DNA of 10,275 nt. Source: a virus. Positions within the stretch are counted from its first letter, which is position 1; each line of letters opens with the position of its first letter. The position numbers and the translations under genes were made by a program. The stretch is from the UHGV virus genome UHGV-0180488; one strand, written 5' to 3'. The notes beneath the pieces were generated by a model, which made no database searches, was not told the origin of the DNA, and saw only the letters and a program-made list of their open reading frames with translations. Below are positions 3,145 to 9,931 of the stretch, one piece after another.

Positions 3145-4173
3145 TCATGAATCCATGAGGCGGCTATTGGCACCTGCTGTCACACCGCCACGACGAAGAT
3201 AACGCATCAGTGTTTCGGGCTTCTTCCATGTACCTTCCTGCATAATTTCAACCAAAGACACCTGTTTTTCAGCCATATCTATGGCGGCACCAACACGCGC
3301 ACTGTGGCCTGTCCACGTCCGGTAACGGCCTTTATTGGGGGTGGCATCACTCTTACCCAGCAGCGCCCAGGCGTCACTGAAAATCTTCTCCATCGCGGGC
3401 ACGGTTAATGGCGTGGTGGTGATCCGCGCTTTGTTGCTCCGGTGTACTGGCGGGAAAAGTATCGCATCCGGGTGCTCACGTAGTCCGGACGCGTCCAGCC
3501 AGTCATTGAGAACCGCAGTTGTCCAGCGGGAGAGCACCTTATCAAGTCCGGCGGCGGTCGTGATGGTTTTGGTGTGGGATACGTGAAGCGTTACAGTGTC
3601 ACCAGTCTGTTCCAGATCGCGAACACGCACGCGGGACATTTCAGCCATACGCAACAGGGTATTGTAGGCCAGGAACAGAAAAGCCCGGTTGCGCAGATCC
3701 ACCAGCCTGTCAGAGCGGGAGAGCAGCACGTCGAGCAGTTTCAGGTCATCCCAGCGCAGGGGCACTGCCTGGCCTGTGCGTTCGCCTTTTTCGGTTGCAG
3801 CTTCGCGCCGGATGCGCCGCATCGCCAGGGATACGCTTTTGTCATCAGAGAGTTGCGGCAGTCCGCATTGTGACAACAGCATATTGAGCATGGCGTAATG
3901 CTTTTCAATGGTGGTTGAAGCCAGATCCGCATCATGCAGTTGAAGCAGGTATTCGCGGGCAGCTTCCGGGGAGATCGGAAACCACGCAAGACCACGAGCG
4001 TGGCACCATCGCGCCCAGGAGTGAAAGACCAGGCGCAGATCGCGCAGTGTATTAGGTGAGTAAGCACCCTGGTCATTAAGGAACTGCATGAAATTTTTGG
4101 CGGCTTCCTGGTACTCAGCACCAATATCACGAAGAAACATGCCAGGATTACCGGAGATAATAAGTTTACTCAT
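3145..4173 (-). CDS. dre: Cre-family tyrosine site-specific recombinase, Dre-like, 342 aa
   Basis: The translation aligns along its length with P1 Cre as I recall it (e.g. AYNTLLRMAE vs AYNTLLRIAE; GHSARVGAAIDMAEKQVSLVEIMQEGTWKKPETLMRYLR vs GHSARVGAARDMARAGVSIPEIMQAGGWTNVNIVMNYIR, with the catalytic Tyr context conserved), at roughly 40-45% identity by eye. A rox-like site rather than loxP lies 153 bp upstream, which is why I call it Dre (the Cre homologue of phage D6). ATG at 4173-4171 with AGAGGTGA upstream. Confidence 0.92.
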   Translation of the reverse strand: MSKLIISGNPGMFLRDIGAEYQEAAKNFMQFLNDQGAYSPNTLRDLRLVFHSWARWCHARGLAWFPISPEAAREYLLQLHDADLASTTIEKHYAMLNMLLSQCGLPQLSDDKSVSLAMRRIRREAATEKGERTGQAVPLRWDDLKLLDVLLSRSDRLVDLRNRAFLFLAYNTLLRMAEMSRVRVRDLEQTGDTVTLHVSHTKTITTAAGLDKVLSRWTTAVLNDWLDASGLREHPDAILFPPVHRSNKARITTTPLTVPAMEKIFSDAWALLGKSDATPNKGRYRTWTGHSARVGAAIDMAEKQVSLVEIMQEGTWKKPETLMRYLRRGGVTAGANSRLMDS

Positions 4174-4316
4174 GTAATCATTTCACCTCTATAAATTGGT
4201 GTCGCTACGCGAAAAAACAAAAAATGACAGGCTAGTTATCCGTGAGAATTTAAAATTTAAGCCCTTGATTCGAACCATGACTTTTTGAGTCTGTCAATAC
4301 TGATCGTTTGATCATT

Positions 4317-4344
4317 ATTATATACTAACTTTAAATAATGCCAA
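4317..4344 (-). promoter_or_regulatory. Putative sigma70 promoter for dre, with its -35 inside the rox-like site
   Basis: On the minus strand: -35 TTGGCA (4344-4339), 16-bp spacer, -10 TATAAT (4322-4317). Predicted start near 4310, inside the GATC pair at 4302-4305 and 4310-4313. Sequence-only prediction. Confidence 0.35.
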
Positions 4345-4357
4345 TTATCTAAAGTTA
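4326..4357. other. rox-like recombination target site for the Dre-like recombinase
   Basis: TAACTTTAAATAAT (4326-4339), spacer GCCA (4340-4343), ATTATCTAAAGTTA (4344-4357). This is the rox site as I remember it (TAACTTTAAATAATGCCAATTATTTAAAGTTA) with one difference, C instead of T at 4349, which makes the arms imperfectly symmetric. Flanking C (4325) and G (4358) extend the palindrome. Confidence 0.85.
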
Positions 4358-4509
4358 GAAAGGGAGAAAATTTTTTTGAAAAAAAGGATCAAGTGATCAA
4401 AAAAGAAACCGTGCTATTAGTGGTAGTTAGACGCTTAAACCCAGGATTTTGAAGAAGGTTTTCTAAGAAGAACAATAAAAAATTCCATGTTGATCCTTTA
4501 CTCATCGTG

Positions 4510-4569: not shown

Positions 4570-5607
4570 ATGAATAAAAGAACAATCGAGAAAGAGTACA
4601 AACAGTTCCGGTCTGTTGCTGAACGTTGGAAGGAGCTGGTGGTATCAAACTCAGTGTTCCATGACACCAGTTATAACGGAGAGGAATTCCGTCATGTTGC
4701 TTTGACACATGATCCAGACGTCTTGAAAGAAGCCGAAGAATGCCTGGTCGCCTGGAAAGCATTTGTGGACGTATGCCGCAATGCTGGTGGGAAAAAGCTG
4801 AATATCGTTGAGACAGTATATCTTCCGATCCCATTCATCATTGAGGACACGAATCAAAGTACACACATTGTCGTATCTACAGCTTCGACTACCAGAACGT
4901 TCACTCGCGAGAGTTTGCTGAAAAAGTACGATAATGTCATTAAGAAAAGTAAAAAAAGCCCTATCTTTTCTCAGGTCGTAGATGCCCTTGAAAAAGAAAG
5001 ACATTTCTTTGCAATGGAGCCGGAAGGCGAACTCTATCGCGCACGAAAAGATGACTATACCGATGTGGTGCTGACCTCTGATCTCACATCTGACAACACC
5101 CTGTCTCGCTTAAGAGTGGGTGCGCACGGGGCGCTGGTGTTCTCACGCAATAAAGAATTGAAGATCCCTGTGGTTAATAACGTAGATGAACGCCGTAGTA
5201 TTACCGTTTATTCCGGTGTGAAGCCTATCCCTTGTGGCCCGCTGGGCGATTTTAGTCTGTATCGTGTGAACGACATCACCAGGAGTCAGCCAAGCTATGT
5301 GGCTAAGGCCTATATTCTGCGTAGCATTGAGTCCAGAAACCTGAGTTTTAACAACAAAAGCCAGGCGCTTCTGAACTCTACGCCGCCTGAGATCCTCCAG
5401 GTCATTGAAAGAAAGGTGAACGCGGCGAGAGAGGCGCTTATCCGCCTGGAAAAAATGGACATGGAGTTGATTGATGTCATGATGGCATCAGGCGATGACC
5501 TGACAGGTATCCGGCTGACCGATGCACGCAAGAAATACGGCAAAGAAATTGAGGAACGATACGGATACACGTTCAATCAAACAATGTCAGCAACAAAACT
5601 TCGTTAA
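4570..5607 (+). CDS. c1: C1-like phage repressor of lysogeny, 345 aa
   Basis: Position matches the P1/D6 layout (convergent with pacB, divergent from the lox/rox-recombinase unit). Local matches to P1 C1 as I recall it: LNIVETVYLPIPFII vs LNIPKTILYPVPNIL, VNNVDERRSITVYSGVKPI vs INGEFEKAKFSLYDSIEPI, SLYRVNDI vs KIYRLADI. Overall identity is low (perhaps ~30%) and the protein is about 60 aa longer than P1 C1. Confidence 0.7.
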   Translation: MNKRTIEKEYKQFRSVAERWKELVVSNSVFHDTSYNGEEFRHVALTHDPDVLKEAEECLVAWKAFVDVCRNAGGKKLNIVETVYLPIPFIIEDTNQSTHIVVSTASTTRTFTRESLLKKYDNVIKKSKKSPIFSQVVDALEKERHFFAMEPEGELYRARKDDYTDVVLTSDLTSDNTLSRLRVGAHGALVFSRNKELKIPVVNNVDERRSITVYSGVKPIPCGPLGDFSLYRVNDITRSQPSYVAKAYILRSIESRNLSFNNKSQALLNSTPPEILQVIERKVNAAREALIRLEKMDMELIDVMMASGDDLTGIRLTDARKKYGKEIEERYGYTFNQTMSATKLR

Positions 5608-7141: not shown

Positions 7142-8464
7142 TCAGTCTTCCTCTGGCGGGGTAATAGCAATATCGTCGTAAATATCAGCCGTAGCGGATG
7201 GGTCAAGCTCCAGTCCTTCATCATCGGCTTCAAACTCACCAGCTTTTCTTTCACCGTTGGCGTCGTAATCCCCCAGGCCTAACTGGTCAACTACTCTGGC
7301 AACATCTTCACGGCGCTGTTTGAGCCACTCTGAAAGCTCTGCTTTTTGTTTGGCGTACTCTTCGGCTTCACGCTGGATCTGGTCATCATCAACATCACTG
7401 CTGTCAACTACTGGCGGTTCCAGAAGCGTGATAGCTTTCGCCGCACGCGCAGCCAGGATTGCAGGAACACTTACCCCTTGCCGCTCGATGTATTCCGCAA
7501 CACCTATATCGTCCAGTTCTTCGCGCTCGCGCATACGTATAGCGGTTGCAATAACCCTGGCGGCGCGTGCATCAGCGCCAAGACGATAGTCAATCTCTTT
7601 GCTACGTTGCTCTGCCTGTAGGCGTGCAATGTCCAGTTTTTCTCTGGCCTCAGCCTCTTTAAATGCCTGCTGCCGCGCCCCCTGAATCAGTTTTTCCTGG
7701 CCTTGCTGGAGTTTTTGCTCTGTCTGATAAATGGCTGCGAGGCGGCTGATGAAGTCGTTCATGTAATAGGCGGCATCCTGCATGAGGCCGCAGAGACGCT
7801 GGGCCGGGTGTATCCCTTCCGGCTCGCCATCGCCTAAAATATCAATTTCTTTACGTAGCCGTGCCGCCTCCATGTCTACAATTGACTGGTATTCTATGGC
7901 GCGTTCCTGAGCCATCAGGATGGCCTTACGCAGATGTTCAGCCGCACCGTTCTGCATCATTTCACGGGCGACATTTTTCGACGGCAAGGTGGCACATTGT
8001 GCTGATTCGCCGTGGATCATTTGCGATGATCTCTGACTTGAAGATGCCTTTTTATCCTTTTCTGGGATCATTTTTGCTTTTTTATCGGCAAATGATCCCT
8101 TTGATAAATCCACTAACTCACTGTTATCAATGGGCTTATCAGCATGATCCGCGTTACGCTTGCGTGGCATCTCCCTGAATTGACTTGTCGCCGGCTTATT
8201 GTCAGTTTTTGTAAATTCTGATTCTTTTCCGCTCGCTCGTTGCTGTTTTTTTGTCCCACCAGCACGGGGTTGCTGGCGTGTTCTGGCGCGGTTCTTTGAT
8301 GGTTTAACTTTGGCCTGCACCTCATTTTTTTTCATATTGAGATGCTTTCTGGCAGTGTTGAAACTAAGGCCATTTTGTTCACAGTATTCCTTTACCGTGA
8401 TCCCTTTTTCCTCTTTCAGCGCCAGAAACCGGGCACGATGCTCTTCCCAATTAACCAGTGTCAT
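7142..8464 (-). CDS. pacA: Terminase small subunit, PacA-like, 440 aa
   Basis: N-terminal HTH-like segment (ITVKEYCEQNGLSFNTARKHL), a basic low-complexity linker, a coiled-coil-like middle and an acidic C-terminus. It lies immediately upstream of, and is coupled to, the large terminase gene, and contains a GATC cluster like the P1 pac site. Called by synteny and architecture, not by strong sequence recall. Confidence 0.65.
   Translation of the reverse strand: MTLVNWEEHRARFLALKEEKGITVKEYCEQNGLSFNTARKHLNMKKNEVQAKVKPSKNRARTRQQPRAGGTKKQQRASGKESEFTKTDNKPATSQFREMPRKRNADHADKPIDNSELVDLSKGSFADKKAKMIPEKDKKASSSQRSSQMIHGESAQCATLPSKNVAREMMQNGAAEHLRKAILMAQERAIEYQSIVDMEAARLRKEIDILGDGEPEGIHPAQRLCGLMQDAAYYMNDFISRLAAIYQTEQKLQQGQEKLIQGARQQAFKEAEAREKLDIARLQAEQRSKEIDYRLGADARAARVIATAIRMREREELDDIGVAEYIERQGVSVPAILAARAAKAITLLEPPVVDSSDVDDDQIQREAEEYAKQKAELSEWLKQRREDVARVVDQLGLGDYDANGERKAGEFEADDEGLELDPSATADIYDDIAITPPEED
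8015..8149. other. Candidate pac (packaging cleavage) site: cluster of five GATC hexamers inside pacA
   Basis: GATC at 8015, 8028, 8066, 8094 and 8146 (five in 135 bp against about 0.5 expected), in TGATC/GATCA contexts that resemble the TGATCA/G elements of the P1 pac site. The rest of the 1.3-kb gene has only two GATC. Confidence 0.45.
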
Positions 8465-8853
8465 ACAGCAACACCACGGCGTTTAATGGCTTCATTCCAC
8501 AATCTGTTAGCCATGTTCACCAGTTCACGGCGTTCCGTCTGATTCTTGCCAGTGATAAATCGGTTGGAATTCTTTACAAGCAGGCGGTCAAACTGCGGTG
8601 TACGTCCGCGTACCTTAAACTGATACCCGTCAAGGCCATGAAGCCAGTATTTGCGCGGGTATACGCGGTCATCGCGCTCACAAATAGCCCTGCTCGAACG
8701 AACAAAGTGACGGATGATATTGTTAACATTGACACGTGATACGTGAAGATGAGGATATTTATCTTTGGCGAGGGTGGTTATCTCAGTGACTGTAAGATAA
8801 CAGTCTTTCCTGATCATGATATCCGCTATTTCAGCACTGCTGATTTTATCCAT
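8461..8853 (-). CDS. Hypothetical protein, 130 aa, first gene of the packaging operon; possibly an Lpa-like late activator by position only
   Basis: ATG at 8853-8851 with GGGGGGA upstream; its stop overlaps the pacA start (ATGA). In P1 the late-promoter activator gene lpa precedes pacA, but I cannot confirm sequence similarity. Confidence 0.55.
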   Translation of the reverse strand: MDKISSAEIADIMIRKDCYLTVTEITTLAKDKYPHLHVSRVNVNNIIRHFVRSSRAICERDDRVYPRKYWLHGLDGYQFKVRGRTPQFDRLLVKNSNRFITGKNQTERRELVNMANRLWNEAIKRRGVAV

Positions 8854-8963: not shown

Positions 8964-9356
8964 TTACCATCTGCTTAAACGAACAATATGTCTTACTTTT
9001 GCGGACCACTTCCCTTTGGTTTTGTTGACTACCGCCTGCGCCAGCCTTAACTCGCTTTCATAATCAGCCTTACGCCCATCGTTTTCCGACAGCAAATAGC
9101 CTTCAACTTGTGGTACGGTCAGATAGTCCTGATCAACATTAAGTGGTCCTGTGGGTGCTCTGAACGGCGTTAGTTGCTTTGCGTTCCAGTTAAATCGAAT
9201 ACGTACGTCACGAACGGCAAGGGTTGCATACCCATGCACGGTACTTTCGTAACCTAGTTTTGTTTCGCCTGCATGACATGACGTGATTTTGCAGTCAAGC
9301 AACTTCCAGTCCATTTCCTTAGCTTGTGCAACTGTTAGCTTCTGCTCTTCGTACAT
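8964..9356 (-). CDS. Hypothetical protein, about 130 aa
   Basis: ORF on the minus strand. I prefer the ATG at 9356-9354 (GGGAGG 7 nt upstream) to the TTG one codon earlier used in the track. The ATG overlaps the TGA of the upstream gene by 1 nt. Confidence 0.6.
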   Translation of the reverse strand: MYEEQKLTVAQAKEMDWKLLDCKITSCHAGETKLGYESTVHGYATLAVRDVRIRFNWNAKQLTPFRAPTGPLNVDQDYLTVPQVEGYLLSENDGRKADYESELRLAQAVVNKTKGKWSAKVRHIVRLSRW

Positions 9357-9931
9357 CAAAATGCCTCCCAGTCAGTTGCCATAATGTCTACGCTGCTGGC
9401 AAACCAGTCAGAACGTGCTTGCAAAGCACCATCCATCATTACCAGACGTGGAAGCACGGAGACTTTGACGCCCTTTTGCACGTTGAATATTTCTTCCGGA
9501 AGAAAGCTAACCATCTTGTCCTTACTTTCAATGCAGCCGGGTTCAAGTGATATGTACTGTCCTTTAGGCCAGGATTTTCGGCGTGCGTCTAATCCGTTCA
9601 TTAACCAGTGGATTGCGACAGAAAAAGGAATGTTTGCTTTGGCAATGGACAGTCCACCAGCGACAGCCTGTTTATGAAACTTGAGGAGTTTTACAGCGGC
9701 CTCGGCAAGCGCAACATAAGGTTCTGGATGGACTTCGGTAAGGCTGCATCCACGAACTGTTACTGTCACAGCATGGGAATCGCCTTCTGATGCCGTTTCG
9801 ATGTTGACCCCTTTGTTTGACAGTGCGTGATACAAAGCGTCACCCATGCATGACCAGCGTTCATTGCGTCCAATGAACTCACTCAGGATGCGATCCTGCT
9901 CTGTATACGTTGCATTAGTCAAAACAGTCAT
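9356..9931 (-). CDS. Hypothetical protein, 191 aa
   Basis: ORF with a strong ribosome-binding site (AAAGGAGAGG before the ATG at 9931-9929), coupled to the next gene. No motif recognised. Confidence 0.65.
   Translation of the reverse strand: MTVLTNATYTEQDRILSEFIGRNERWSCMGDALYHALSNKGVNIETASEGDSHAVTVTVRGCSLTEVHPEPYVALAEAAVKLLKFHKQAVAGGLSIAKANIPFSVAIHWLMNGLDARRKSWPKGQYISLEPGCIESKDKMVSFLPEEIFNVQKGVKVSVLPRLVMMDGALQARSDWFASSVDIMATDWEAF

Follow-up and report, generated by a model that had tools for sequence, protein, structure and literature searches.

The question raised by the stretch considered here is where a P1-related phage-plasmid of the D6 type starts to package its DNA. The stretch is UHGV virus genome UHGV-0180488, 10,275 nucleotides of DNA that are called the window below, at their full length. 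Its minus strand encodes a PacA-like small terminase subunit, and five GATC sequences lie close together inside this gene, pacA. In phage P1, the packaging site (pac) is a segment of 161 bp inside pacA that contains seven TGATCA/G repeats holding the Dam site, and it has been proposed that hemimethylated pac is bound and that further methylation permits cleavage (PMC10028697). We ask whether the GATC cluster of the window is a site of the same kind.

Our answer is that the cluster is probably the recognition part of a D6-type pac, placed in the codons of a weakly constrained linker of PacA and gated as the P1 pac is. In the mechanism that we propose, PacA, acting through its N-terminal helix-turn-helix and together with PacB, would bind the GATC-containing hexamers on concatemeric phage DNA, and cutting would occur only where the GATC adenines are methylated on both strands. 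Freshly replicated, hemimethylated copies would be bound and spared until the host Dam and a phage Dam-family methylase have acted, and the cut would then initiate headful packaging in series. In this scheme, binding by the terminase, a cut close to the cluster and its gating by methylation are what we infer by analogy with P1; the following sections describe the comparison of relatives.

GATC sites in the linker of PacA

The product of pacA matches PHROG 1711 over residues 4-433 and the small-terminase profiles PHROG 370 and 51 over residues 1-115, and a BLASTP comparison with P1 PacA gives 21% identity (E 3e-9). The protein consists of an N-terminal helix-turn-helix (about residues 1-45), a variable basic linker (about residues 46-160) and a conserved C-terminal part. 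The original prediction had reported the five GATC sites, within 135 bp of a PacA-like gene, in the codon pairs D-H, G-S, M-I, R-S and M-I of a basic low-complexity segment, and had quoted the hexamers TGATCC, GGATCA and TGATCT. Coordinates, codon pairs and hexamers are all reproduced in our analysis. The segment that bears the sites is the Lys/Ser-rich basic linker behind the helix-turn-helix, and the protein is indeed a PacA homologue, adjoining a homologue of PacB with 55% identity to the P1 protein.

GATC is not in general excess in the window, which contains 44 copies against 36.6 +/- 5.9 expected. Within the cluster the sites are spaced by 52, 28, 38 and 13 bp, and the next GATC is found 639 bp away on one side and 250 bp away on the other. 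A span of 135 bp with at least five GATC occurs in 2.4% of 2000 dinucleotide-preserving shuffles of the window. The density alone is modestly unusual and only suggestive; it is conservation in relatives that lifts the cluster well above chance. The hexamers in the cluster are four TGATCC and one TGATCT, which are non-palindromic, so that each site has an orientation. The 7-mer GGATCAT/ATGATCC occurs five times in the window, including four times inside the cluster, and the order of orientations along the coding strand is forward, forward, reverse, forward and reverse.

Conservation was assessed in a set of D6-type pacA genes that comprises phage D6, six plasmids of the same type, one IMG/VR contig and 41 more metagenome or IMG/VR loci; the conservation counts use 48 D6-type sequences, and the column statistics use 33 distinct ones. 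All five GATC positions (nt 316, 368, 396, 434 and 447 of pacA) are present in 46 of the 48 sequences, and the remaining two have four, since site 2 is missing in one (L043) and site 3 in the other (L058). The carriers include plasmids of E. fergusonii, S. dysenteriae, E. coli and E. marmotae, phage D6, and IMG/VR and metagenome contigs. They form three lineages, namely the clade of the window, the E. marmotae type and D6 proper, whose pairwise identity over nt 301-460 is 61-64%. Between nt 151 and 460, 203 of the 290 columns outside GATC vary (70%), versus 2 of the 20 GATC columns (Fisher p = 1.2e-7), and of the 4-mers clear of any GATC, only 5.5% are the same in all three lineages. The weak protein constraint that had been presumed for this segment is visible in the first of these figures, and relatives with the same terminase, both close and distant, carry the cluster at identical positions.

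Judged from these alignments, the five GATC sites are under purifying selection at the level of DNA, not of protein, because GATC persists at sites 2 and 4 even where the encoded amino acids differ. Specifically, the Gly-Ser pair at site 2 of the window is Arg-Ser in D6, and the Arg-Ser pair at site 4 is Gly-Ser in D6 and in the E. marmotae type. With amino acids and local codon usage taken as fixed, codons that permit GATC would be expected at all five sites with a probability of about 1e-3 per lineage, or about 1e-9 for the three lineages if these are independent. In the D6 genome (91,159 bp, 325 GATC), no second span of 135 bp contains more than three GATC.

The GATC core is better conserved than its flanks, and the sites differ in this respect. 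The sequence AAATGATCCC at site 3 is invariant, and so is AATGATCC at site 5 (in all 33 distinct sequences); both extend to the Enterobacter type of pacA (L007 and L030), which has 51-52% identity. The flank of site 1, cgGATCa, is unchanged across the three lineages and degenerate (GATTC) in the Enterobacter type. Site 2, which reads AGATCA in D6, is retained in the Enterobacter type even at 51% identity. At site 4 the GATC core alone is constant, the hexamer being GGATCA in the E. marmotae type and GGATCT in D6.

Some further observations concern the same gene. A sixth GATC (window 8399-8402, pacA nt 63) is located in GGGATCAC, which encodes Gly-Ile-Thr of the helix-turn-helix; it is invariant in all D6-type pacA genes, and the Serratia homologue has a similar GGGATCAC at nt 54. 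Because this site lies within a conserved protein domain, selection on the DNA is inseparable there from protein constraint. A run of 26 nt, AGAAAGCATCTCAATATGAAAAAAAA (window 8325-8350, minus strand; pacA nt 115-140, extending over about nt 112-144), holds an A8 tract and does not vary in any of the 33 distinct D6-type sequences, synonymous positions included, and this conservation at the nucleotide level is absent in the Enterobacter type. A -1 shift at this run meets TGA almost immediately and yields a product of about 47 aa that contains the helix-turn-helix only; the run could be a slippage site or an additional DNA signal. Finally, PacA is 440 aa long in the window and in plasmid pEF-4 of E. 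fergusonii, and 454 aa long in D6 and in the S. dysenteriae, E. coli HX138 and E. marmotae plasmids. The consensus suggests that the difference of 14 residues sits in the acidic C-terminal tail (window 7142-7300).

Table 1. Coordinates of the features discussed, in positions of the window; hexamers are given as read on the coding strand of pacA
Feature	Position	Strand	Description
Five-GATC cluster, candidate pac recognition region	8015..8149	-	pacA nt 316-450 of 1323; codons 106-150
Site 1	8145..8150	-	GATC 8146-8149; pacA nt 316; GGATCA(T); Asp-His
Site 2	8093..8098	-	GATC 8094-8097; pacA nt 368; GGATCA(TT); Gly-Ser
Site 3	8065..8070	-	GATC 8066-8069; pacA nt 396; (AAA)TGATCC; Met-Ile; orientation opposite to sites 1 and 2
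Site 4	8027..8032	-	GATC 8028-8031; pacA nt 434; AGATCA; Arg-Ser
Site 5	8014..8019	-	GATC 8015-8018; pacA nt 447; (CAA)TGATCC; Met-Ile
Conserved nucleotide island GAATTTACAAAAACTGACAA	8199..8218	-	pacA nt 247-266; 50-70 bp 5' of site 1
lpa (late promoter activator)	8461..8853	-	PF25716, 2.2e-48; overlaps the start of pacA
pacA (small terminase / pacase A), 440 aa	7142..8464	-	PHROG 1711 'terminase', 2e-132
pacB (large terminase / pacase B), 501 aa	5634..7139	-	55% identity to P1 PacB
c1-like repressor	4570..5607		profile match
Cre/Dre-like tyrosine recombinase	4173..3145		profile match

The PacA family and its hexamers

The P1 record annotates the IHF site of pac and the primary cuts at pacA nt 256-285, and the GATC hexamers of P1 stand on either side of the cuts, at nt 195, 202, 214 and 229 and at nt 325, 337 and 348. 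GATC clusters occupy the same part of the gene in every PacA relative that we examined, P1 included. They are found within nt 140-480 in homologues from Enterobacter, Citrobacter, Leclercia, Xenorhabdus, Serratia and Pantoea and from a P1-like Salmonella Newport plasmid, and there are two clusters in this interval in the Citrobacter, Leclercia, Xenorhabdus, Serratia, Pantoea and P1-type genes. The usual pattern of the family is an upstream run with 12-bp spacing, in codons for Asp-His or Asp-Gln, plus a smaller downstream group. On the sequences compared, a pacA segment studded with GATC is a family-wide trait, and the window holds the version of the D6 lineage. Note that tblastn at E <= 1e-3 did not reach P1-type pacA, and that the P1 sequence was taken by accession, not by similarity search.

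The Enterobacter type has 3 + 5 GATC hexamers, at nt 157-181 and nt 380-471, with a gap of 199 bp that is about twice that of P1. It keeps sites 2, 3 and 5 of the D6 type with their flanks, adds three upstream sites, and uses TGATCC as D6 does. In arrangement, it looks intermediate between the P1-like two-cluster layout and the single cluster of D6.

The hexamers differ between the branches of the family together with the protein that would read them. In the same gene segment, P1 has six TGATCA and two TGATCG. The PacA helix NTARKHLN is associated with TGATCC in the D6 and Enterobacter types, and NTARR[E/Y]L is associated with TGATCA/G in P1, Pantoea, Serratia and Xenorhabdus. That the hexamer type tracks the helix-turn-helix of PacA fits a co-evolution of reader and site, which the original prediction had suggested on the ground that the hexamers of the window are not identical to the P1 elements.

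By sequence similarity, the parts needed for the methylation mechanism of P1 are present. Escherichia, Shigella and Salmonella hosts are Dam-positive. In addition, the D6 protein D6_63 is a Dam-family methyltransferase (TIGR00571, 249 bits versus a cut-off of 115; PF02086, 1.9e-56), and the closest plasmid, pEF-4 of E. fergusonii (NZ_CP137859.1), has at the same position an intact open reading frame (ORF) of 301 aa that is 88% identical to D6_63 (L064 22318-23223). The gene table of pEF-4 omits this ORF, which falls in the gap between glnS and the next listed gene. By analogy with P1, cleavage at the cluster may be gated by methylation, for which these enzymes and the constancy of the GATC core give only indirect support.

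Weighing the pac interpretation

Several observations weigh against regarding the cluster as a pac. In P1, both of the flanking hexamer clusters matter; the D6 type lacks this two-cluster layout with its spacer of about 90 bp and has one cluster, in which the largest internal gap is 52 bp, and pacA nt 64-315, the equivalent of the left cluster of P1, is without GATC. No IHF consensus WATCAANNNNTTR with at most one mismatch is found in nt 300-460 of the three D6-type lineages; the same scan did pick up the site annotated in P1, but the degeneracy of IHF sites makes this a weak negative. Protein alignment sets the D6-type cluster at and downstream of the right-hand cluster of P1, not across the P1 cut, although the alignment of the linker is unreliable. 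The link between hexamer and helix-turn-helix comes down to essentially one evolutionary split. The GenBank records of D6 (AY753669 and MF356679) annotate no pac. Furthermore, the support for a start of packaging at the cluster is comparative, and the conserved GATC could serve another purpose that depends on Dam or SeqA. Phasing of A-tracts, considered as an intrinsic bend in place of IHF, was inspected by eye and set aside as confounded by Lys codons. Taken together, the comparative evidence nevertheless supports the interpretation as a candidate pac with which the original prediction began.

If the GATC did serve such another purpose, the cluster would be a Dam- or SeqA-dependent element unrelated to packaging, and the real pac would lie elsewhere. 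It might act as a sequestration site, for instance, or provide methylation-sensitive timing of pacA/pacB expression or of plasmid replication once the fork has passed. A GATC core that is conserved while its flanks vary, as at site 4, would suit any Dam-dependent function, spacings of 13-52 bp would be compatible with cooperative SeqA binding, and the failure to find either an IHF site or the P1-like layout counts on this side as well. However, a promoter scan gave no promoter-like site in or near the cluster, and a Dam-regulated promoter was rejected on this result. The cluster also occupies the part of the gene to which the pac of P1 has been mapped by experiment, all PacA homologues have such clusters whatever the plasmid replicon, and the hexamer type tracks the DNA-binding helix of PacA. 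In addition, the conserved 7-mer flanks at four of the five sites (GGATCAT/ATGATCC) point to a sequence-specific binder, beyond SeqA or Dam alone. We consider an element of this kind unlikely. Far less probable still is that the cluster has no function at the DNA level and arose by chance or as a by-product of the protein motifs Met-Ile-Pro, Asp-His and Gly/Arg-Ser. Met-Ile-Pro is indeed encoded at both site 3 and site 5, in the Enterobacter type as well, and density alone has a p of only about 0.02 within the window. On the other hand, Ile at these sites is always encoded by ATC, although ATC makes up 44% of the local Ile codons; Asp is always GAT, and Gly or Arg is always GGA or AGA followed by a TCN codon for Ser. 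Moreover, the amino acids at sites 2 and 4 vary with the GATC intact, in a linker that is 70% variable around them. On this evidence from codons and amino acids, we rejected the by-product explanation.

A different alternative keeps the cluster within pac and concerns the place of the cut. The island GAATTTACAAAAACTGACAA lies within the variable linker and is kept down to the Enterobacter type, which is 51% identical; in it the third codon positions are kept, and the first and second change. It is possible that the island is a further component of pac, perhaps a cut or bending region. A real cut at the island would fall some 60 bp to the 5' side of site 1 and leave the cluster as a single arm, so that the D6-type pac would be one-armed and about 200 bp long. 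We treat this unlikely arrangement as a lead only, and it would refine the reading of the cluster as the recognition part of pac without excluding it. In its favour, the island is conserved at the nucleotide level as far as the Enterobacter type despite amino-acid change, in the Enterobacter type it stands halfway from one GATC cluster to the other, which is where P1 is cut, and its CTGACAA is the reverse complement of TTGTCAG, the heptamer under the annotated primary cuts of P1. However, a 7-mer match in inverted orientation is weak, having a chance of about 1% per 100 bp, and D6 itself carries ATTGACAA at the island. Between the clusters of Pantoea, Leclercia, Citrobacter and the P1-like S. 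Newport plasmid the motif is missing, and a short protein motif, (E/K)(F/L)T(K/E)xD, might account for the island instead. TTGTCAG/CTGACAA as a cut motif of the whole family was rejected, being present in some lineages and absent in others.

An equally tentative extension is that the D6 lineage has rebuilt its pac into a compact, one-sided and IHF-independent form, in which oriented TGATCC hexamers would stand only 3' of a cut at the CTGACAA island and the PacA helix would have changed from RR[E/Y]L to RKHL, with the Enterobacter type, whose 3 + 5 sites surround the same island, as an intermediate. If true, this would be a natural series in which the specificity of a methylation-gated terminase site shifts jointly with that of its reader.

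Genomic context and comparison with known systems

The order of genes in the window, as given by ORFs and profile matches, is lpa-pacA-pacB-c1-rox-recombinase, as in P1 and D6, in reverse orientation. By this order, the window is the immunity and packaging region of a D6-like, P1-related phage-plasmid (plasmid-prophage), and the position of lpa puts pacA in the late operon, as in P1. The closest records over the window are non-mobilizable plasmids of Shigella dysenteriae, E. coli and E. fergusonii, with about 91-94% DNA identity. D6 is the sole characterised phage with a similar PacA (66.5% identity); a megablast search of pacA against phage records gave no match, and two scans of genome contigs found no relative.

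The rox site at 4326-4357 has one mismatch to that of phage D6. On either side of it stands a pair of GATC, at 4302/4310 and at 4387/4395, and an exact IHF consensus is located nearby at 4258-4270 on the minus strand; the D6 rox is without a comparable GATC cluster. The pairs around the rox of the window may serve methylation-sensitive control of the recombinase or c1 promoters. Upstream of lpa, an ORF of 191 aa (9356-9931, minus strand) has a Tad2-like (Thoeris anti-defence 2) domain (PF11195, 5.1e-11; PHROG 7362, 1.3e-70).

D6-like plasmid-prophages occur commonly in E. coli, Shigella and Salmonella, 145 plasmid records carry a D6-type pacA, and these elements probably transduce host DNA as P1 does. 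A known pac signal would allow the construction of packaging-competent phagemids orthogonal to P1 vectors and the prediction of pseudo-pac sites and transduction hot spots. It would also make it possible to ask whether methylation timing of packaging is general across the PacA family. With hexamer (TGATCA/G to TGATCC) and PacA helix changing as a pair, the family is also a simple system in which to follow the evolution of terminase specificity. As regards mechanism, the cluster is the expected analogue of the P1 mechanism described in the 1980s and implies no new principle.

Among known systems, the location of the cluster has parallels in other headful phages, namely P22 (gene 3), SPP1 (gene 1) and Sf6, in which pac lies inside the small-terminase gene, so that the recognition site of the terminase is likewise embedded in the gene of its own small subunit. 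To our knowledge, however, these sites are not built from Dam sites and have no methylation gating. GATC clusters that are read through hemimethylation are known from oriC, in sequestration by SeqA, and from the IS10 transposase promoter, and here too closely placed sites are present whose methylation after replication could serve as a timer. These systems act on the initiation of replication or on promoters, whereas the cluster of the window is in a terminase gene and has no promoter-like site. The pacA of phage D6 (AY753669, MF356679), the type member of the lineage and the source of the Dre/rox system, shares with the window the five GATC at the same gene positions, the gene order and rox; its PacA differs in sequence (66.5% identical) and in length (454 versus 440 aa), and the flanks of sites 2 and 4 are not the same. 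Full-text literature searches returned no relevant description of a D6 pac, although the D6 papers may already mention the cluster.

The cluster can also be compared with P1 pac itself. In both cases the sites fall in the linker behind the helix-turn-helix of the small terminase, within the 5' third of pacA, and consist of several hexamers with a GATC core that have TGATC in common. In both, the gene adjoins pacB (55% identical) in a late operon after lpa, and a phage-encoded methylase of the Dam family is found in the relatives of the window. In contrast, P1 pac (161-162 bp) has seven TGATCA/G hexamers, arranged 4 + 3 with 96 bp between the inner GATC sites, whereas the window has five oriented TGATCC/T hexamers in one cluster of 135 bp. 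P1 pac is cleaved by PacA/PacB under the control of adenine methylation and has an IHF site and a central cut, and P1 PacA is only 21% identical to the PacA of the window, versus 55% for PacB. Because hexamer identity, two-cluster layout and IHF site all depart from the defining features of the P1 site, the cluster would be a variant of P1 pac rather than a copy, which most probably works in the same way.

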